A stretch of 61,439 nucleotides of DNA, filler included, from Circinaria calcarea (GCA_051942165.1; 14 parts of 14 records of this genome joined end to end with filler, not necessarily neighbours in it), one strand, 5' to 3'; counted from the whole stretch's first letter, positions 1,285-46,770 are shown. Notes: generated from the sequence alone by a model not told the origin. Translations and numbers: made by a program.

Positions 1285-4200
1285 CTAGATGTAGAACATG
1301 CTGTTCTTGATATCTTCATGGACATCCCTAGTCCAACGGGCTCTAGCCCAGTCGAAACTCATGTCGCTTCTACCAGAATTGAAGACATTGTCGAGGTAGC
1401 AACGCGCTCTTTCAGCAAGTATGTCAGCATAGTAAGCTGGAGGACAAATCGAGACTGATTTGGTAGCCCTGCCGAACAGGTAACACAGATTATGAGTCTA
1501 AAGGCACGGTCAGTCTCCGCAGACGGTTACACTGCAGTCAATGATACGTACCAGTTGTTCTAGTGCGTCTACCTTGATTCCGATTTGATTTTGAATGACG
1601 ACGTAGTGAGCGGGTCTAGCTGTGCCTTTAAGACCATCATGCGCTTGGAGGAAAAAGTCCCAACCTCTCTCCATTGTGATACCTCGATCCACTATAGTGC
1701 CCGGATGAGGATTCCCGGATCTGGCCATACCGCTTTCGTCGGTTGGGTAAAATCTTGTATGATGCCTCTTACCAACAACGATAATGGTCACCAGAGGCTT
1801 CTTCTCATTGGCCTTGTAGACACGTTGGATGGCTTTGTCGAACGATGGAGACTCCTCATTCAGCACTGTCAAGTATTGTCCCTCGGAAACACCGTCACGG
1901 TACACAAGGATTTTGTTAGGCAAAGCCCCTTTGTTGTGATTTTGCCATGTTTTGAGGCGTTCCACTATCAAGTCTTCCAGACCTGAGACTATCTCTTTCC
2001 TACTCTCTTGTGCGCGTACACTCGCAGGCCACTGCCCACATCTCTTATCGACGCTGGCAACACATGCAGCAATGCTCGGAGCGCCGCTCTGGCTGTCCGG
2101 TGAAGGATGCGTCACGTCTATCCCCACCAACATGGTGTTGCCATCGTCCAGTATGCCCATTTTCTCTTTGGGTAACTGCTGGTTTACTCCGCCGCGTTTT
2201 AGGTTGAATTTGAGCGCTACATTAGCGAGATACTGGGCCGGGCCACTGCGACCATCCCATTGTTTGTTGACTGTGTTGGCAGCGACACACACGCAATGTA
2301 GTCCATGAGTAACGTCCGTCCGGAACTTAATTTTCGGGTACAGCCTTGTATCTTTCTCTGGGATTACCACGAGTATCATTTTGACTTTCGCTTGGCGGAC
2401 CATCTTGAGGAAGGCGTCGATAGCGGCATCGTGGGATTCCGTATCCGCTGGATTCAGGTTCAACACTGTCTGCGGCAAATTGATCGTCGGCCCAACACGA
2501 AGACCACACAACTCCATCTGCTTCGCCAATTGGTTTATGAGGTCCTTGGTAGGGAAGGATAAGGACCTTCGACCGTTCCATTGTATTTCCATGACCGACC
2601 AGTCTGTAATGTTTGCTCCGACACTAAACTTTATGCCCATCATATTCCAGGCTCCAAACCTGGGATTTGTATTTTGTTTAGGATTTGCGTACACAAGAGT
2701 AGGGGGTTTGAGGATCCGCCCAGGAACGGTGATCATCTGTGGCTTGATCTCAAGTCCAAATTTACTCTACAGTTTCAATCAGCTTGGAAGTTTCAGCTGT
2801 AAATGCAGTCAGAGTGAAAGTCATACCGGCCCATCCATTCGGTTCTGCCCAAGCCCCAAGATCCTCGCGCCCTCTCCGACTATCAGCTCTGCGTTAGTAG
2901 CCGGCTGACGACATGCGACATTGACCATATTCGCCGTTTGACTGCCTGACAGCTTCTTTCCAGATATCTGACCAGGCACAACATTACACAACTCCGGTGG
3001 TATCATAATCGGGTGCTCTTTGTTTCCGACATTGATCAAAGGCCTCTGTCCTTCCCTTAGTGGTATCCCATACGCTAAAATTGGTCAGCGTGGTAAAATT
3101 ACTGATAGACCTTCAATGACTTGCCTTCTTTGTAATAAGCCTCAACAGTGACTCGCTTCCTCTTGCCATCCTTCTCCCATTCAAACGTGGATTGTCTCGC
3201 GTTCGCACCCAACCCGACAGGCTTCGGAGACGTGACGAGGCCATAGATCACTTTCTTTTTGAATACGCCGTCTATTGTCTTGGATTTGATGTGTCTCAAC
3301 TCAACACGAACTCCTTTTAGGAATTTCTGGAGTTCTTTCAGTTGCTCTTGGTGATCTCGACCTCTGACAGTATCCAAAAAAGCATCCATGAGCTTAGTCA
3401 GTGGGCCAGCCTCATAGAAGGCCGCTGTGATTGAATTGACGTTCAGCAATAGTCGCAGAGTCGATGTCCTGACCGAGGTGTATAGTCCACGCAATGCTGT
3501 AAGTCCACCACCCAGAGAAGATGGCTGGTTATCGAGAGGAAAGAATTTGCCGCCTTTGAAAGCCGCGATACCAGTCGTGTTTGAGGGTAAGCGTGACATG
3601 ACGATATTCAAAGCTTGTAGGATAGGACTCTTGTCATCGCACGTAGTCCGGGGATCCGTAGACATAAGATACTGCATAAGGTTTGCAACAGAAACCGTTC
3701 CGTCCTGTTTGACCCTCATCTTATACTTCACAGCTTTCGGACCTTCTTCGCTCTCTTCCGGTTCAATGTATGGGATATTTCCCACCTGGAAGCCCTCAGG
3801 CCCAAGGTTGACCTCGACGCTGGTAATGATAATGGTCTTGTAGTCCGTGGCTATGTTCTCGGCCCCTATGGCTTTCGCTAGGAAGGGTGCCCTATCGATC
3901 AGAAGCTGGATCATGCGCTTTGACTTTCCTTTCGGATCCGGGTCGAAGTTTACGACATAGCGGAAGAGTTTGGCGTTTGGATCCGGAAGGGTAATCTGAA
4001 AATAGTTGGTACGTAGTACAATAGGAGTTCCGGTGGTTCCATAGGAAGGGCGTAATGGCAATCTCTTTTCACCCTTGATGCTTAGAGTTGATAGAGTCAA
4101 GCCAACCAAAGCATCTTCGGCCTTGGTAACTTCCGCAGAAGGCTTCTCAAGTTCTCCTTCTTGGGGTCTGTCTAAGTGTTAGCAGTAGTGCAGCAGCATT

Positions 4201-4313: not shown

Positions 4314-4413
4314 NNNNNNNNNNNNNNNNNNNNNNNNNNNNNNNNNNNNNNNNNNNNTTAATTAATTAANNNNNNNNNNNNNNNNNNNNNNNNNNNNNNN
4401 NNNNNNNNNNNNN
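4314..4413. other. Artificial contig-joining spacer (N44-TTAATTAATTAA-N44)
   Basis: Identical 100-nt spacers also at 8723-8822, 13130-13229, 17537-17636, 21943-22042, 26343-26442, 30740-30839, 35132-35231, 39523-39622, 43911-44010, 48299-48398, 52682-52781 and 57065-57164. The core gives stops in all six frames. Confidence 0.99.
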
Positions 4414-8722: not shown

Positions 8723-8865
8723 NNNNNNNNNNNNNNNNNNNNNNNNNNNNNNNNNNNNNNNNNNNNTTAATTAATTAANNNNNNNNNNNNNNNNNNNNNN
8801 NNNNNNNNNNNNNNNNNNNNNNATCGTACCACGCTCCTTTTCTCTACAGAGTCAGACATCTCACA

Positions 8866-13129: not shown

Positions 13130-13436
13130 NNNNNNNNNNNNNNNNNNNNNNNNNNNNNNNNNNNNNNNNNNNNTTAATTAATTAANNNNNNNNNNNNNNN
13201 NNNNNNNNNNNNNNNNNNNNNNNNNNNNNCCTGCATACTGCTACTGCTATCCCTTGGGCATGTCGGCGTTGACGCTAGCAGCTGTATCGCTACTGCCGGG
13301 GTGAGTCAGCACCACACCTCGGCGACTTGTCAAACTGACATTGGAACAGCCGGTGATGAGTTGCCCTGGATGCATTCGCCGTCGATACACACCTTCCCAT
13401 GCCATATACCTCAGCAACGTTGTTTGAGGACGAACC

Positions 13437-16400: not shown

Positions 16401-17536
16401 GACGCATTTGTCGAGCAAGCGGTCCCAAATGTCGAGGTCGAAGAACCTCCATCAGCGCAATGGGGAGACTACAGCATGGAAGAAGCTATGAATGTTCCAA
16501 TTGCTTTCAACCCCTTTGTCAATGGCATTAGCGAAGACCAATTTCTGTCGTTTCCCCCCCGGAAAGACTCCGAGGTTTCTGGATCAAGTAGCTCCGGTAT
16601 CGCCAGCTTCGTTGCCATTACTGCTATTCAGCCTACTTCTCAATCTTCACCTAGCGAGGATGAAGTATGGAATGAATATGACGAACTCCTTGACCGTGTT
16701 GTGTCTCCGATCGAATTTTCAGGCACCCCACGGGGTAAAGGTAACCTGCAGGCACCCGCCTCCGAACATTACCAGCAGCCATCTCTCGATTCGATGAAGA
16801 AGGAGTCACCCGTACTAAAACCCAGTCAGAACTCAGGAAGTATAGACTTACCCGGTCATTCTCTGAGGTCACAATCTCGGCAAGCTGCGACAGACTCCCC
16901 AGCGTCAGCACTTCCCAGTCCTCGCAGATCCGATGCGACGCTTGTGTCGCGTCTGTCGTTTTCGGACTTCTTTGCAGGTTACGCTGACAGATCCAGTCTT
17001 GGAACCAAGGTCGGACCAGCAACCCTATCGACAGGTAGTCAATGTAGTTCTTTGAGCACCTCATCTTCATCAGGATCTCGGACAGGTCGTGATAGCAATG
17101 ATGAGAAATATCGACAACTCTTAGATCGGAAAGCTAGCAGCGCGTCTGGAGCTCAGAATAGTCTCCGGTTCAGCGCGGTGATGACTAGCCGTTGGCTATC
17201 ATTCAACCGTGTACTTTTTAGCCCCGCCCAGGAGGAACTTGAGAACAACAAGCAAGACAGGATTTTAGTTCTTGACGGGTTATGCAACGATGACTGGTCA
17301 ACCTACTGCGCTATGACATATCCAGATGCTATTGTCTATAACCTTGGCACTTTGCAGGCCATGTCCGCCAGGAGGAGAGTATCTCTCACCTCGCGGTCAC
17401 TTTCCAATCATCGACGGATCCATCACGCCAGCTTCACCCACCCTTTCCCGTTCCCAAAAGGGTTCTTTACCGTGGTCGTCTTACGCTTCCCTGTTGCAAG
17501 TTCGGAGTCAACTTTCTACCATGCCATATCCGAGTG
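13437..17536 (+). CDS. Ser/Pro-rich protein with C-terminal SAM-methyltransferase-like domain, 3'-partial
   Basis: ORF of over 1360 codons with a conserved-looking island KKGPTAGTGHEGYGKYG and C-terminal RWLSFNRVLFSP...RILVLDGLCNDDWSTYCAMTYP...PFPFPKGFFTVVVLRFP (class I MTase-like). Confidence 0.7.
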
Positions 17537-17637
17537 NNNNNNNNNNNNNNNNNNNNNNNNNNNNNNNNNNNNNNNNNNNNTTAATTAATTAANNNNNNNN
17601 NNNNNNNNNNNNNNNNNNNNNNNNNNNNNNNNNNNNC

Positions 17638-18008
17638 CGACTGCTCAACGATATGCAAAACCACCAGGCTTCCTGGCCCTTTACGCAACCAGTCAACCGG
17701 GACGAAGTCGCAGACTACTACGAGGTCATCAAGGAACCCATGGATCTCAGTACGATGGAAGAGAAGCACGAAAAGGATTTGTATCCGACGCCGGAGGATT
17801 TCATCCGCGATGCGAAGCTGGTGTTTGATAATTGCCGGCGGTATAATAATGAAACGACGGCGTATGCGAAGAGCGCGAACAAGTTGGAGAAGTTCATGTG
17901 GAGCCAGATCAAGGCGATTCCGGAGTGGTCGGTACGTATCGTGCTCAGATCGTGGGGTTTATGCAGAGGACTGATGATTCTTTGTAGCACCTGGCGGACG
18001 AGAAATGA
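17638..18008 (+). CDS. GCN5: Histone acetyltransferase GCN5, C-terminal bromodomain, 5'-partial
   Basis: [40 protein letters not shown]...[12 protein letters not shown]...IPEWS, then intron 17932-17987 (gtacgt...ctgat...tag), then HLADEK*. Confidence 0.92.
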
Positions 18009-18230
18009 AACGCCATCCGGATGTTTTCAGCGAGACGTACATGGAGCCTCACAGCCAGTCCGCCATTTACACTCGAAGCATCGCCGGCATTCGGGAACGG
18101 GTTTTGGGGAGGTAACGGTCTACAATTTCTAGCGACGATACCCCAATGCAAGGTGTTTGGCGGCCTGCTGTCACTACTCACTTTGGACATTTAGTAGCTC
18201 AGTGTTTTTTATCTGCGAGACTTTGACTAT

Positions 18231-18258
18231 TGAATTGAATTGAATTGAATTGAATTGA
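18231..18258. repeat. (TGAAT)n microsatellite
   Basis: About 5.5 tandem TGAAT units downstream of GCN5. Confidence 0.9.
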
Positions 18259-18829
18259 GAGGAAAGTCGAAGACTTTTCAAAGTCTTGGCTAGGTGTCTT
18301 GATTGTAGAGTGCCCAGTCTGTATTCATATACTTGAGTTCGCTTGCACGTACTTTCCATCCCAAATCCTATCCGAACTCCACCCGGGGAGAAAATCTCCC
18401 CATCTTTCCCATCCAACCCCTCCCACCAACTCTATCCCCATCCCATCTCGTAATCATCCAATTCTCCTTCACCAATCCATTCCTCACCCTCCTCCAGATC
18501 GTCAAACCTGGAATCCCAGCCCCAGCAAATCAGATAGCATCGCAGAAAATGTCATGGATCGTCGTGATGGACTCAGAGTATATAGCCACCGCACCACACC
18601 ACACCAAACCACCCCCCCCCCCAAAACATCTCCATCATCGCCAGTCTAGCGCTAGAAGCAAGAGACTGCCAGTGCTTCAGGGATATTCTGGAATGTGGAA
18701 GTGGTGTTAACAGGTACGGGGTATGTGCGATTCATCATCGTCCCGTGAAATAACCCATGCAAGGGGCAAGATTTCTCAACTGACATGGCGGGACCGCCAT
18801 GCTAGTATTGACTCGAGCACGAGCGATTC

Positions 18830-19660
18830 GATAGGCCGCTCCAGTAACTGCGCTGGAGATGAACCACAGTTTGTATGCAACCTTCCCCTTCCCGACCCTA
18901 AGGGGGTTGTGAGGTAGTCTCCGAGGGTGTGTCTCACCACGATGTTGCCAGCGTGTGCTTAAGACCTTCATCCGCTGCTTGGTGTAAGCGTAGGGCCCTA
19001 CATCCAACGCTCTCTTGATGAAGACGAGTCTTACACGAGTTATGAGCGCGTTGGTGCTCGATAGGCCGCTCCGAACTTTCGAGCCAAACAACGCCATGTG
19101 GAAGTGAGGGTTCAGAAGCGATTGAGCAACGTGTTCACACTTGCCATGGAGTAATCGCCTCAACGACGTGTAGTTGTCCCCCTTGGCCAGACAAGCTTAA
19201 TAAAAAGCGAAATGCCTCAGCGACTATGGGCACCATGAATGCCAGAGAGGCCGCTCCGAGTATTTTTGCTGCTGGCACTGACTTGCGTTGAGTGAGCTCC
19301 ACTGAAGGTGAGACTTCAGCTCTGGGAGTACTCTTTGGTTGACAGGCTGCTCCGAGTATCGAACTGAAGAGCACGTTCAGCTGAGCATGAAGCCTGGGGC
19401 AATAGAAGCGTCATCTGCGCTTGATAGGCCGCCCCGTTACCACTTCATTTCTTTCAGACCACAATTGAGAGAAATGTCTGAGTATCATGAGCACCAAGCT
19501 AGGTTTGATGTTTGATAGGCCACTCCGAGAATGTTTCCGTTATCGCAAAAATCAGCAGATTTTCCTAAAGATGAGGCTCTAAGAGGAATGCGCACCGTAA
19601 TTCGGTTGACGCATGATAGGCCGCTCCAAGAATAGTATTAATCCTTATTATGATGTCCAA
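18830..19660 (+). repeat. Array of seven GATAGGCCGCTCC-like motifs with flanking hairpins; candidate structured ncRNA
   Basis: Copies start at 18830, 19060, 19245, 19341, 19423, 19514 and 19615, with unique sequence between them. Complementary arms flank most copies. The repeat is directly seen; the RNA interpretation is inference. Confidence 0.7.
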
Positions 19661-20005
19661 AGGACTGAGCACTCTCCGTCTTTATGTGACAATGTGGTGT
19701 GGGTTGGAAGGGAAAGAGAGCAGTGTTGGGGCTTAAATGTCTGAGGTGGCTGTGAAAAATGAGTCAGAGACTCGGTTCGAGCTTCTTCGATAGAGTGAAT
19801 GAGAGAATAGGCTTGGCCCGTGCCTATTTGTGAACGAATAGTTGCGGTGAGTAGCCAACAATGTGTAGGGGCTATAGAGCCGACCGAAGAGTATTAAACA
19901 GGGACAACGATGCACGTGACTAAGGTAGGCAGACATGGGAGGATCATAAATTCTGGTCGAAGTCATCACTTCGTAGACGGTTGAGAAAAAGCATGCCTCT
20001 CTTAA

Positions 20006-20922
20006 TTAACCCCCTAACCTTTTTCCCAGCCCGGCAAATCGCCCACCTCTCTTTGCATTCCGCTGCCCACCTCGACCTAGAGTCTCGTCGACGTCCATCA
20101 TGTCGCCTTGGTCCACATCATAGCCCTCCCCATTCCCTGCCTCGCCTGCCCCTCTCTTCCCTCCGGCCTTGGCCGTGTCTTTCAATGTACGGTCATCGGC
20201 CATGGCTTTCTCTAAGATTCTCTCGTGTTCCTTTTCCCGTCTTCTCCTGTTCGCTGCCCTTCTTCGTACTTCTGTAACTTGGCCTTCTATTTCTGCTAGT
20301 ACGCTCACGCATCTTCCATTCCAGTCATCAAGGACAGCGACGATGTGAGGCACGCTATTGGGTCTCAGGTCCCGCAAGGGTGCAAGTGAAGAAACATCCA
20401 CACGCTTAGAAAGGGTATCGAGCTTAGCATTCAGGAGACCGGCGTAGATACAGCTGATGACCAGATCTTCCAGAACTCGGATGGTGGGGAGGGCAAGGGC
20501 TGACAATAGGTAAGAGTAGGTAAGAGTAGCATGCGAAGTGGACAGTGAGAGGAGGGTAAGCTGGCGAAGCTTGGATGACTGGGCGTCCGACAGGGTAGGC
20601 AGATCAGGTGTTGCTGCGTATTATGTTAGGCTACTTCCAGACAACACCGTCGGAATCGAGGGGTTGTACACGTGTAATCTGACCAGGTGCCCCATGAGAA
20701 TATCTTCAGAAGCGTCAGGTAAGGCGCATATTCGGGCGATGCTGTACGCAATGACTGGATATTTGGTGTTTGCAGGAGCTCCGCGAAAACATACGTGTTG
20801 GGGGCAGATGTAGCTTGCGTGATGAGCTCTGCAGCCGCACGGGGGGATGTGGCGGATTTTGAAAGAAGGACATATTGCTCCAGGGCATTCAGAGCCTTTT
20901 GCTGGGTCGGATCCATTGCCAT
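20006..20922 (-). CDS. CSN7: COP9 signalosome subunit 7 (PCI domain)
   Basis: MAMDPTQQKALNALEQYVLLSKSATSPRAAAELITQATSAPNTYVFAELL...LLKIFSWGTWSDY; intron 20614-20669; KLRQLTLLSL...LEDLVISCIYAGLLNAKLD...RDLRP. Confidence 0.9.
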
Positions 20923-21789
20923 GGCTGAGATACGGTATGTACTACAGAGTACAGTATCGAAGCTCTTTTGCTTGGAGTCAGGGCGTTCATCGGATAAGGT
21001 GAGCATGGGGGGACTTATCGATAAGATGGCGGCTCAAAAATCACGTTACCAGTACCATAGTATGGTAACAGGGATCATGCTAGCGCGCTTTTTCATCGAA
21101 TCCACCAGCCTCCGAAGTTCGGTCACCGATGATCTTTGAATTTTCTAGACTCTAAGCTACATGTACAATGCAAAGTAGTCGGAGGCGAAAATGCTGCTGT
21201 CAATCCGGCATTGTTAGGTAAGATACTGATTGATGAAGGGCACACGTTCTCAAACCCAAGAAGGAGCACTGTTACACTACATCCAGAAGCTTCACCCTTC
21301 AGTTGTAGTGAAACAAAGAATATTCACTGAAGGAGGCTGTGGAATCGTATTGAAAAGTCCACGACGTATTCTCAGCTGATTATCATTTCGATCGGTCTAT
21401 GCTGAATGTAATCATCTCCCCGTTAAAACCTTCCTGCCTCCTCTCCCAAACTGGTTAGTAAGCACCAGCACTTACTACGCTTGCGGATCGTCTTCGCAGT
21501 CAGCCCGTAATACCGACCTCGGGGATACAAGGCTGACAGCCACAGTGCCATCCCACCACGAGGGAGCTGGTCTTCTCTCTTTCTTCTTTCTTTGTACTTG
21601 GATTTGGTGTGTTCTTACATATTAGAAGAATAGCAGCGACATTCGGACGCTTTGAAAGAGTGCTCGAGCGGTAAATACGCGCCTTCGTCGAACATACACA
21701 ACCATTTCCCCAAAACATCGACCTCGGTTCAACGAAGAACATCCCCGGGGAGAAGCTGGCCGGACGGTCGGTACGCAGTGCTGCTAGCA

Positions 21790-21942
21790 ATGGCTTCTTC
21801 AACCGCTGCGACCGCCCACATGGCTATGACAACTCTACGAGTCGAGGGTATGACCTGTGGCGCCTGCACCTCGTCGGTCGAGAGTGGCTTCAAAGATGTC
21901 GACGGGGTGGGAAACGTCTCTGTTAGCCTGGTGATGGAGCGG
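21790..21942 (+). CDS. CCC2: Copper-transporting P1B ATPase (Ccc2-like), first HMA domain, 3'-partial
   Basis: TTLRVEGMTCGACTSSVESGFKDVDGVGNVSVSLVMER contains the GMTCxxC metal-binding motif. The true start could be further upstream. Confidence 0.8.
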
Positions 21943-22042
21943 NNNNNNNNNNNNNNNNNNNNNNNNNNNNNNNNNNNNNNNNNNNNTTAATTAATTAANN
22001 NNNNNNNNNNNNNNNNNNNNNNNNNNNNNNNNNNNNNNNNNN

Positions 22043-35832: not shown

Positions 35833-38800
35833 TTACCTTTCCTCAACAAAGTCCTGCTGCATCATCCACTCCGCCACCAAGGACATGTACTCTTCTACAC
35901 ATGATAGGGAGTATGGGTGATGTGACCCTAGTACCTCCTGGTAGCTTCTACTTGCTCTTTCGTACAAAACGGATGCCTCTTGATATCGGTTCTGGCTCCG
36001 AAGCAGAGAAGCAAGAAACCAGACACTCGTCAATGTGTTCGGATGTTCGGTCCCCAGCGCCTTTTCCCTTAACGCTAATGTCCGCTGGTACATCGCCTCG
36101 GCCTCCTCGTACTTCCCTTGTTTCTCTAATACTGACGCCAGGTTATTCATGCTCATCAGCGTATCAGGATGCTCCGTCTTTAACAATTTTTCTCTTAATG
36201 CCAGCGTCCGCCTGCCCATCGCTTCTGCCTCCTCGTATTTCCCCTGAGAATATAAAACTGTCGCCAGGTTATTCATGCCTGTCAGCGTATGAGGATGCCC
36301 CGTCCCTAAATTCTTTTCTGTTGATTCCAGCGTCCGCCTGCCCATCGCCTCGGCCTCCCCGTATTTCCCTTGCTTTTTTAATACTAACACCAGGTTATTC
36401 ATGCTCATCAGCGTATCAGGATGCTCCGTCTTTAACAATTTTTCTCTTAATACCAGCGTCCGCCTGTTCATCGCCTCTGCTTCCTCGTATTTCCCCTGAT
36501 AATCTAATGTTGCCGCCAGGTTATTCATGCTTATCAGCGTATCAGGATGCTCCATCCCTAAATTTTTTTCTCTTAACGCTAGCGTCTGCCGGGTTATTAC
36601 TTCGGCTTCCTTATATTTCCCCTGCTTATTTAACGGGGACGTCAGGTTAGTCATGGTCGCCAGCGTGGCGGGATCCTCCATTCCTAATATTTTTTGCTTT
36701 AATATCACCGTCCGCCGAAATATCGCCTCAGCCTCCTCATACTTCCCCTGGCTGTCTAGTATTGCCGCCGTGAGTTCAAGGTAGGATAAGTTTTCCTCCT
36801 TTAGAACTTGACGGGAAATATTTAGTGCTTTTTGGCTTCGGGCTAAAGCCAGATCATACTTTCCTTGAGCCAATAGACAATGTGCTGTATTATAGAGAAG
36901 TAAGGCCTGTCGAGAGGAATATTGCTGCTCGGAATGCTGATATTTTAGGACTGCTTCTGCGTGCGGCAGCAATGCCACACATATCTTCCAGTTTTCATAA
37001 ATACCGATTGGAAAGGACTCCGACAGCAATTTCACGGCCTCCTTTTCCCATTTCTCTATCTCACCATGTACACGTAACCACGCTCTTGTCGCAAGCTGCA
37101 CAAGCCGATGCATTCCAAAGCATTCGCCTTCGGCTTCGGAAGTAATCAAAGCAAAGTCATTCAAGGGCGCTAACGCATCTTCAAAAACCAAACGGTTGTC
37201 ATCTTTACAAAGAAGGAACTCCGGAATTCCTTGCCGATCGAGAACACTCATGAGCGATAGAAGCTCGGCGGCTGGAGGAAATTGTTTTTTGATCTGGTCA
37301 AAAGAGATTTGCCAAGTTACGAGGACCGAATTCGGCATACCAGGATCCCTTCGAAGATCCCCCGTATCCTTCAATAATATTTCTTCGTCCTGTCGAGCAT
37401 ATGCTAAATATTTCGCGATTGTCATCCTCGTCTTTCGTGTGCTAATATAAGCTGCAGCCTGTGAAATTGCAAGTGGGAGGCCGTCTAAAGTCTCTACAAG
37501 AGCAATGGTATCATTTTCGCTTGATTTGTCATCGGGTAATCGCTTACGCAGTAGAGTTTTGGCATCTTCTTCTTCCATTAGTGGCACATCGATGACACAT
37601 TCGATTCTGTTGGTTAGCCTAAATGCTGCCTGGCTATTTCGGGAAGTGACAAGTATTGATCCTTTGGAGGTTTGGGGAAGATACATGCACAGTGGTAAAG
37701 CATATTGATTTATGGCAGTCCCGTCGGAGGTTTCTTTTCGAGGGTTGAAGAACATATCTGCGTCATCAGCGTTATCCAGCACTATAAGCCAGTAAGAACG
37801 ATTTTCGTCGATTAGCCAATCAGAGACAACCTGAAGCGTGTTGATTTTAGGATCGTTCCATCCAGGTAGATTCAACCTTCTTGCAATATCTTTGTATGCT
37901 TGATCGAATCTCTCGAAGGTACTGGCATGCACCCAGAATATGCTGCGATTTGGGTGCTTGCTTCGATACCGATAGCAGTATTCAATGGCTATCTGCGATT
38001 TACTGTGCGTGTAAAAACTATTAGCCGAATTCTGTCTTCATACGAGTGTCGAAGGCCGTACCCGACGCCTCCTATCCCGGTAAGGGCAACACGCTGCTCG
38101 GTCTCCAACTTTTCATCGATGTCGCTGATGATATCCTCTCGCCCAACGAAATGGTTGTCTCGGTTGAATGGCACCAGGAAGAGCGTTGTTTCTTTGCCTA
38201 AGCTTGCTGCATGAAAAGCATTAGCCTAATCTATTACTTCCTCATACCGCTGTAAGGTATCCACAGCTAGTAACCGCATTTCAGTGTGATTTTCAAACAC
38301 AAAGTCCTGCACCTCAGGGATTACTGATGTCTACGTACAAGCAACTCCAGACAGCGGCCGCGAAGGCGGTACGCTTAGCGAAGCAATATGCGCCCTTTCT
38401 GCTGCGGCCTTTACCGCAGACTTCACAAGCCGCCCAAGGTTGAAAGAAACTTGCTCATAATCATCGCCCTCCGCACTCTCGAACTTGCAGACTCTGGTAT
38501 GATCTGCATCTAGAGCTATCTGCCTCTCACGGAGTCCGGAGAGACCGAGAGTGGCCGATTTCTGGTCCACGATCTGCGGCTGTTAGCTCAGGCAATCTGG
38601 TAGATATATTTCAGTGCGTACAAGACCCAACCTCCCCATCGGAAGCGTTTCGAAGAAGCTCAACACATAATAATCCTCAAGTTGATGTCGGAAGTCTTCC
38701 ACAAGTGTATCAGAGAATAATGAGTCCCTTGTCAGCGCCTCCATAAACGTATTCGACGGGTTTCGAAGTAGACCTCTTGTTATAGAGGCGACGATGTCTC

Positions 38801-45789: not shown

Positions 45790-46770
45790 TTCCTCGGAGG
45801 GTGCCTCGAACCTCTTAGTTGGTTTTGCAAGGTCTATGGTTGCTTATGGTGAGTTTTTGGAAGGGAGCGGCTGAACAGCACAAGCGTGTGTTTTTGTAAG
45901 TTAGCGAACGAAATGAAGCACTGCTACGTTCTTGTGATACAAATTTCTCGAGCCATTGCTCCTTGGCTACCTAGTCGATAGTCTGACTAAAACGCACAGC
46001 CCAAACAAGCGGATCTCAAGTGGAGGTCTTTGCCACCTTGAAGCCTTTCAGGCATTTGTCGACTGCACCTGTTATGCCAGACATGGTGGCAAGCACACGA
46101 AAAATTACCTGCATGGCATCGTAGGTTTGGATGACCGTCTACCTAAGGCCGTCCGGGATCATCAGATCTACTCAGGCAAACAAATAGTATAACGACATTC
46201 ACAATATTTCAGATACTCATTACTCAACACGAGTTCGCAACCCCAAAGCAATATATAAGAGAAACCCAACTAGATGGCCAAACCCCTGAAGCGCTGCTAT
46301 CCAGTATGTTGTCTCGCCACATGAATTTCCCCAACCTCATCTTGGCACTTCCAAGCCAGGGGGTAAGTCGGCGTCTTGTAGTCATTCCTTCTACCCTCCA
46401 CTTTCCCCTCCGAGACTACCCATAGACGCCCAAATGGCGGGAAAAGCCAGAGTGAATATGAAGGGATACGTTTTATGATGGAGAAGAAAGAAAAGCAAAG
46501 CAGAGAGGTGAATACTGATAGGCCGCAAGGAGGGAGCTAGACTGGTTGCGGACTAGAGGGCGACTGTGATGAGGGGTCTAGCCAACACAGAAAGTGGCAT
46601 GTCCCTTTGTTGAAGCAGAGTCACCTCGAGAGGATCATTCGTAGTGTTCACCCTTTGCTTGACCAACTTTCATTTACCATTCTTACAACCACACAGCCTT
46701 AACTTTATCGCTAGCTGCAACGAGAACTCCTTCAGGTTGTCCACGAGTCTTTGAGAAATTCTCTGCAACC

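Follow-up and report, generated by a model that had tools for sequence, protein, structure and literature searches.

What keeps a 13-nucleotide (nt) sequence almost unchanged at seven places within 0.8 kb of a gap between two genes, amid flanks that are close to random? The question arises in a stretch of DNA from the fungus Circinaria calcarea (GCA_051942165.1; hereafter the window, the whole 61,439 nt that were analysed), in which GATAGGCCGCTCC occurs seven times with 0–2 mismatches, always on the + strand, between positions 18830 and 19627. The window is composed of 14 separate contigs of about 4.3 kb each, their lengths slowly decreasing, and only 17637–21942 is contiguous with this array. 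There the array sits in the ~2-kb gap between the 3′ ends and stop codons of two convergent genes, GCN5 (+) and CSN7 (−). An initial annotation, made from the sequence alone, had noticed the repeated motif and proposed that it is presented on hairpins of a structured non-coding RNA (ncRNA). Here we show that the array is real and derived from duplication, that its short core carries a selection-like signature, that the gap holding it is non-coding and that it persists in relatives.

All seven copies lie exactly where the initial annotation had placed them. Three match GATAGGCCGCTCC exactly (copies 1, 2 and 7, at 18830–18842, 19060–19072 and 19615–19627, respectively), three carry one mismatch (copy 3, GAGAGGCCGCTCC, 19245–19257; copy 5, GATAGGCCGCCCC, 19423–19435; copy 6, GATAGGCCACTCC, 19514–19526) and copy 4 (GACAGGCTGCTCC, 19341–19353) carries two, so that 5 of the 91 core cells are off consensus. 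The spacings of 230, 185, 96, 82, 91 and 101 nt, and the tails GAGTA, GAGAA and AAGAA behind some of the cores, are likewise as first described. Motif search and profile search agree on this set. All matches in the window with at most two mismatches (n = 7) fall inside one 0.8-kb stretch, for an expectation, by calculation, of 1.36 in the whole window on both strands and of 0.0088 per 800 nt of one strand; when up to three mismatches are allowed, 15 matches are found against 14.1 in shuffled sequence, and the 8 with exactly three mismatches are scattered. A profile built from the core and its flanks recovers the same seven copies (E = 4e-6 to 2.5e-4), the next match having an E of 0.73. In the remaining 13 contigs (57 kb), neither search finds another good copy, and a check for a dispersed repeat gave no further copy there and only non-collinear inverted matches in the flanks. 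The match at E = 0.73 is an 11-nt partial copy, TGATAGGCCGC, corresponding to the 5′ part of the extended motif and lying in intergenic DNA of another contig of the assembly (46516–46526, +); about 0.03–0.1 such matches are expected by estimate, it is not significant alone, and it could be a chance occurrence or a single site.

The units share more than the core. A second block, ATGNGCACC, stands 18–27 nt upstream of the core in units 2, 3, 6 and 7: as ATGAGCGCG at 19042–19050 (18 nt upstream of core 2), ATGGGCACC at 19226–19234 (19 nt upstream of core 3), ATGAGCACC at 19487–19495 (27 nt upstream of core 6) and ATGCGCACC at 19588–19596 (27 nt upstream of core 7), all on the + strand. TTGAYG directly upstream of the core and GAGWAT directly downstream of it are also shared among units, as is a TGAG block ~45–55 nt further downstream, and units 6 and 7 are 72% identical over 46 nt. 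The spacers had been called unrelated, which these blocks contradict; beyond them, the flanks are near-random (mean pairwise z of 0.60 upstream and 0.18 downstream, 21 pairs). That the array is no simple tandem repeat, as the initial annotation also held, agrees with this flank similarity and with Tandem Repeats Finder (score 30), which reports no array and finds only (ATTGA)6 and a CACCA run; a minisatellite with units at least ~70% alike is rejected on the same two grounds. One further stretch on the + strand, 18919–18933 (CTCCGAG...), lies ~85 nt after core 1; it is similar to the 3′ half of the extended motif and may be a decayed unit.

These shared blocks make the array a decayed tandem duplication with a selected core; their constant order, together with the identity of units 6 and 7, shows an origin by duplication and a functional unit longer than 13 nt. 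Because Tandem Repeats Finder sees no array, the duplications must be old. The simplest history is thus an old tandem duplication of a ~80–100-nt unit, followed by drift everywhere except in the core and, more weakly, in the shared blocks. Cores within two mismatches of one another amid near-random flanks form the island pattern that selection on a short site produces, and a neutral decay that erased the spacers would not have left only five deviating cells among the 91. A frozen short core amid drifting spacers is a strong pointer to a molecule that reads the core, and very few non-coding elements of this kind are known in filamentous fungi.

No convincing coding signal was found in the gap. 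The 25 open reading frames (ORFs) of the interval have codon-usage scores of −0.12 to 0.17 (23 of them below 0.11), against 0.11–0.28 for real exons. The longest (153 amino acids (aa), − strand) drew 31 candidates from a protein collection, searched at lengths of 84–268, none of which scored, and two interval ORFs submitted to Pfam gave no match. A gap of ~2 kb between convergent stop codons that lacks such a signal makes an unannotated non-coding unit plausible. Two ways of rescuing a coding interpretation were tried and rejected: an ORF that depends on RNA editing, with TAG read as Trp, opens no long frame, and in a micro-exon arrangement (AG|G ... |GTA), examined by eye, the customary G is missing from position 5 of the putative 5′ splice sites and the exons would measure 8–33 nt. 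In Aspergillus nidulans, the locus numbers of gcnE and csnG presumably differ by two, so that a gene model might lie between them; among the papers listed by a literature search, at least four mention AN3621 and none mentions AN3622 or AN3623.

The initial annotation had also excluded a peptide repeat, and this is correct as regards one frame common to the array, since the spacings break it; read unit by unit, the cores do show a frame. In GAT AGG CCG CTC C, which reads DRPLR or DRPLQ, five of the seven cores have an in-frame upstream ATG before any stop (P = 0.035 at the local rate of 0.31, a post hoc value without correction), the peptides reaching 18–42 aa from the furthest upstream in-frame ATG and 15–42 aa from the ATG of the ATGNGCACC block. 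The distances from ATG to core in units 2, 6 and 7 (18, 27 and 27 nt) differ by multiples of three. The differences between units 6 and 7 fall on codon positions 1:2:3 in a ratio of 5:5:5, which is no coding signature, and within the core, third positions vary hardly more than the others (3 of 28 cells deviating, against 2 of 63), which places the constraint on nucleotides. The small ORFs overlap one another and their tails are unrelated.

To see whether the interval persists elsewhere, contigs 80–95% alike to this stretch were taken from two DNA metagenome runs (X1 and X2; word shares of 0.06 and 0.05). Their joints were read at 80% likeness, at which some may come from repeats or from other organisms, and bins that lack cover (for example, 18648–18791 in X1) were not taken as evidence. 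One contig of 2,797 nt covers 19000–19156, 19423–19824 and 19910–21331, and another of 1,222 nt covers 19289–19436 and 19423–20401; the interval therefore adjoins CSN7 in relatives too, on contigs about 80–91% alike to the window. Divergence within the array is 9–20% (40 letters and 2 gaps in 205 nt, 16 letters in 79, 19 and 1 in 148, 15 and 9 in 157, and 44 and 7 in 402), compared with ~5% (X2, 14 in 294) and ~8% (X1, 63 and 45 in 779) at the GCN5 end and ~7.5% (107 and 69 in 1,422) across CSN7.

Alignments of these contigs break or restart at core positions (18828, 19423 and 19436), with those from both runs doing so at copy 5. In the 1,222-nt contig, core 5 has two matches separated by 91 unaligned letters, an apparent addition of ~105 nt that suggests an extra unit. 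By contrast, the 2,797-nt contig joins 19156 to 19289, apparently without 19157–19288 and thus without core 3; between 19370 and 19423 it is longer than the window by ~250 letters. In a contig of 899 nt, 18601 is followed directly by 18828, so that it appears to skip 226 nt (18602–18827) that include a palindrome upstream of the array. The interval thus apparently persists in relatives with a varying number of units, as read from joints at 80% likeness, which do not imply that the core is constant there. The palindrome (18784–18801, 18 nt, CATGGCGG-GA-CCGCCATG) had been reported as a perfect hairpin and is indeed present, although it may be dispensable, being skipped by the contig of one relative.

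The proposal that the core is displayed on hairpins fared differently from the description of the copies. The region as a whole (877 nt, 20 shuffles per strand) folds no better than its shuffles, with z of −0.65 on the + strand and −0.05 on the − strand. When each core was folded with 35 nt on either side and compared with 300 shuffles of the flanks, the mean z was −0.12 (+) and −0.28 (−), and none of the 14 folds fell below −2; stems are thus no more stable than those of shuffled controls on either strand, and the suggestion that G-U pairs favour the + strand finds nothing in these values. The longest helix enclosing a core has a mean of 7.00 pairs, against 6.76 ± 0.45 in shuffles (170 of 500 shuffles were as good). 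Nor are the cores preferentially unpaired: their unpaired probabilities lie at the 0.11–0.94 percentile of the 13-mers of the region, and the number of unpaired positions among the 13 (5–10 in + strand folds, 4–8 in − strand folds) follows no pattern. Four pairs of complementary flanks had been listed; they are found where their positions were given, but local stability, helix length and accessibility do not distinguish them from chance. Hairpin presentation is therefore at chance by every one of these measures, and a hairpin-displayed sponge of the CsrB type was rejected for lack of loop display above chance. As a warning of wider use, complementarity seen by eye around a repeated motif was no better than chance in seven of seven cases.

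Which molecule, then, reads the core? Our preferred answer, to which we give a probability of roughly 0.35, is that a + strand transcript carries the core as a linear recognition motif, multivalent through its repetition, and acts as a decoy or a scaffold; we infer the transcription, the strand and the partner. What favours a transcript is that the gap is large enough for one, that it lies behind both neighbours, that promoter-like sequence stands upstream on the + strand and that several blocks follow one another in order. The promoter-like sequence is a C/T- and C/A-rich tract read by eye at 18360–18640 (+), with TATATA at 18579–18584, ~250 nt upstream of the array and followed by C-rich sequence; it is a possible RNA polymerase II (Pol II) promoter pointing into the array. 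Under this proposal, a ~80–100-nt unit would have been duplicated in tandem in a 2-kb gap devoid of coding signal, with some units decaying or being lost; selection would have kept the 13-nt core in all seven remaining units, and less strictly the ATGNGCACC, TTGAYG and GAGWAT blocks around it, as the spacers drifted almost to randomness. A + strand Pol II transcript would start behind the TATATA/C-rich tract, at ~18579–18640, and would be an independent long non-coding RNA (lncRNA) or, less probably, a very long 3′ untranslated region of GCN5. Its cores would be read as linear, unstructured sites, repeated for multivalency, and many molecules of a single sequence-specific partner could assemble on it. 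That partner would be either an RNA-binding protein or, since 13 bases in a row are conserved, a small RNA complementary to them.

Several points weigh against this proposal. Folding gives no signal on either strand, leaving an RNA reading without support from structure, and the common orientation of the copies follows from tandem duplication, so it expresses no preference for RNA. Transcription of the + strand is something we infer. Thirteen contiguous bases are long for the site of a typical RNA-binding protein, and a DNA-binding protein of the multi-finger or Myb type would also account for the pattern. The stretch at 18919–18933 looks like a decayed unit, so not every copy has been kept. 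Finally, a complement of the motif that could serve as partner was not found in the 61-kb window.

In its most specific form, the proposal would be of a lineage-restricted fungal lncRNA from the GCN5–CSN7 gap with at least seven linear 13-nt motifs, its units gained and lost among close relatives. Through its multivalency it would be a decoy, or the seed of a condensate, for one RNA-binding protein or for a small RNA pairing with all 13 bases. We consider this form rather doubtful. If true, it would give filamentous fungi their own equivalent of meiRNA or NORAD, based on a motif of much greater length and specificity; if the array is transcribed at all, it would add a multivalent decoy or scaffold RNA to the few fungal examples, and its specific motif, unusual in its length, would make a partner pull-down simple.

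The closest known system is fungal. In fission yeast, Mmi1 is lured away by a decoy, meiRNA (sme2; PMC4077057, PMC3352096), an lncRNA in which many short linear motif copies attract one RNA-binding protein and no conserved fold is needed. The transcript proposed here would work in the same way, and the array resembles meiRNA in having many motif copies on one strand within ~1 kb (seven, all +); there is no sequence likeness between the two. The Mmi1 motif is a hexanucleotide found in many transcripts, whereas the array has a 13-nt core that appears confined to one locus in the 61 kb, and its transcript and partner are only proposed.

More distant comparisons can be made with RNAs outside the fungi. 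The animal lncRNAs with Xist repeat A or NORAD-type units have known partners and larger cores, with a structural element in repeat A; they are like the array, if its RNA nature is granted, in their units derived from tandem duplication, conserved core, drifting spacers and multivalency. The bacterial CsrB/RsmZ sponges display GGA in hairpin loops and have Rfam models. The array as proposed would be like them in that a single RNA presents the same short motif many times over; it differs in having no supported hairpin display, no Rfam match and a fungus as host. The array is no member of any described family; it fails both the hairpin display of the CsrB type and the boxes and stem of C/D RNAs (below).

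The alternative that survives best places the reader on DNA. Here the array would be a cluster of binding sites, its asymmetric 13-bp core being bound as double-stranded DNA by one factor (multi-finger C2H2, Zn2Cys6 or Myb-type), and it could act on a transcript missing from the annotation, perhaps an antisense one, as its upstream activating region, or form a polar terminator or fork-barrier array between convergent genes. We regard this reading as tentative in its turn, and as nearly as likely as a multivalent RNA. An asymmetric, G+C-rich core of 13 bp, conserved as a block, has the size of a four-finger or Myb-type site, no transcript is required, and the lack of RNA structure signal in the region, in local folds, in accessibility and in helix length is as expected for DNA sites. 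The partial copy at 46516 would fit as well, its E of 0.73 notwithstanding. Set against these points, the array lies downstream of both neighbours with no gene start evident beside it, the other 13 contigs hold no other good copy, and the additional blocks, semi-conserved and constant in order, suggest that the unit exceeds the site of a single factor.

A known arrangement with much the same outward form is that of the terminator repeats of ribosomal RNA genes, which lie in ribosomal DNA and are bound by Myb-type proteins of the Reb1/TTF-I kind. Like the array, they have a short asymmetric core in many copies and one orientation, with irregular spacing and unrelated spacers, behind gene 3′ ends. 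They differ in that the array lies by Pol II genes and its binder is hypothetical. One fungal factor motif was tried directly. The light-response element of the white-collar complex consists of two GATN repeats a few bases apart (GATNC-CGATN; PMC7493669). It does not fit the array, as the cores have one GATA (in five of the seven copies) followed by GGCCGCTCC, with no second repeat in register. Recognition of the core on DNA would mean that a hitherto unknown factor with a 13-bp site acts behind GCN5 and CSN7, two genes with roles in chromatin and signalling.

It is less probable, and in our view unlikely, that the array has no present function, being an old minisatellite-like duplication in decay whose core is kept by mutational or conversion bias, or as microhomology for the gain and loss of units. 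The apparent difference in unit number between close relatives, the alignments that break at cores, the one unit that looks decayed (18919–18933) and the absence of any structure or coding signal in the array region would all be expected. But under neutral decay the core should have been lost along with the spacers, and it deviates in only 5 of 91 cells; the duplications, invisible to Tandem Repeats Finder, are old, and we know of no process that limits conversion to 13 nt. Should neither RNA nor DNA be read here, the array would be a clean case of short islands surviving in decaying duplications.

A structured ncRNA whose hairpin loops display the motif, or a transcript from which each unit would release one small RNA, for instance a box C/D small nucleolar RNA (snoRNA), appears very unlikely; on the single sequence, this reading is largely refuted by the folding tests. 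It can draw on the complementary flanks, on the minimum-energy folds of copies 2 and 4, which place most of the core in a loop, and on the 82–101-nt period of the last five units, which is of small-RNA size. Box C/D snoRNAs are 50–130 nt long, with a C box (RUGAUGA) near the 5′ end, a D box (CUGA) near the 3′ end and a terminal stem of at least 4 pairs. In a crude scan of our own over both strands of 18600–19800 (C box with at most one mismatch, D box, terminal stem of at least 4), none of the seven units matched. The sole match of that scan lies just behind the array at 19650–19744 (+; ATGATGT...CTGA, 95 nt, terminal stem of 5 pairs); it has no Rfam support and may be due to chance.

The initial annotation had recognized no known RNA family in the array, in agreement with Rfam, which gives no match inside it at E ≤ 10 when 17500–21000 is searched. 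Two weak archaeal C/D matches in the same search lie outside the array, at 20426–20592 (13.5–13.6 bits; E = 4.5 and 8.4). At gathering thresholds Rfam has no match in the whole window, and ARAGORN predicts no transfer RNA (tRNA) gene in it.

Least likely of all is a set of polycistronic small ORFs, in which several units would each encode a short peptide with the core as D-R-P-L-R/Q and ATGNGCACC as start codon plus first residues. The in-frame ATGs and their distances in multiples of three speak for it; against it stand the 5:5:5 ratio, the near-fixed third positions, the overlapping frames with unrelated tails, the low codon-usage scores and the lack of Pfam matches. The insect gene tarsal-less (polished rice), an apparently non-coding transcript of ~1 kb with several short ORFs that share one peptide motif, is the precedent for such an arrangement; the array differs from it in having no coding signature and in ORFs that overlap and vary in length.

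Searches for similar arrays elsewhere returned nothing comparable. Metagenome contigs scanned for two adjacent cores yielded 15 loci, none of which could be aligned to 17640–21940 (blastn). Those with at least three copies (L002, L004, L005 and L010) are ordinary repeats with conserved flanks; in L001 and L006, a bacterial ORF contains two copies whose flanks differ. In L011, on a bacterial metagenome contig, the 13-mer ends a sequence resembling a tRNA T-arm, acceptor strand and CCA that is duplicated 80 nt apart (4001–4093, +). This may be an integration-site duplication and is unrelated to the window. A tRNA lead drawn from it was dropped as a product of the way in which the locus had been retrieved, and ARAGORN predicts no tRNA there either. 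A CSN7 query against contigs of prokaryote genomes, run to seek fungal contamination, gave 397 pattern matches, none confirmed. Literature searches with 10–11-nt pieces of the motif and its complement led, among the matches listed, to primer or construct contexts (judged by title), and a search for fungal lncRNAs with repeated motifs gave nothing relevant among the matches listed.

Both neighbours had been named correctly and are convergent. The GCN5 bromodomain exon occupies 17638–17946 (+), from next to the contig start at 17637, and is supported by Pfam (Bromodomain) and by a match to a solved GCN5 chain (E = 4.7e-53), the alignment reaching to within a few residues of the chain's end. CSN7 occupies 20009–21033 (−), with its stop codon at 20006–20008, and has the Pfam domains PCI and CSN7_HB_subdom (the CSN7 helical bundle). 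An (ATTGA)6 microsatellite at 18229–18258 lies in what is presumed to be the 3′ flank of GCN5, and the CACCA run, followed by a C-run, is found at 18587–18612 within the C-rich tract. Many short, non-collinear inverted matches connect the C/T-rich left flank of the array (18279–18606) with its G/A-rich right flank (19663–19876), so that the array is bracketed by pyrimidine-rich tracts on opposite strands. These tracts may be compositional or may reflect converging promoters.

Linkers between the contigs consist of 44 N, TTAATTAATTAA and a further 44 N; they occur at 4314–4413, 8723–8822, 13130–13229, 17537–17636 and 21943–22042, and then every ~4.4 kb. Adjacency across a linker is meaningless, and an ORF of 1,386 aa that ends at 17536 is hence no neighbour of GCN5. 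At the other end of the contig, divergent from CSN7, an ORF begins at 21634–21942 (+) with a CxxC segment like those that bind heavy metals (MTCGAC...); it is probably a copper-transporting ATPase. Elsewhere in the window, an NB-ARC protein is encoded at 35839–38037 (−), with seven TPR_10 repeats (E = 6.6e-82). Its gene contains near-identical tandem units of 126 bp (42 aa), the repeats lying at 36090–36620, and the protein has the appearance of a fungal NLR whose internal repeats are highly conserved.

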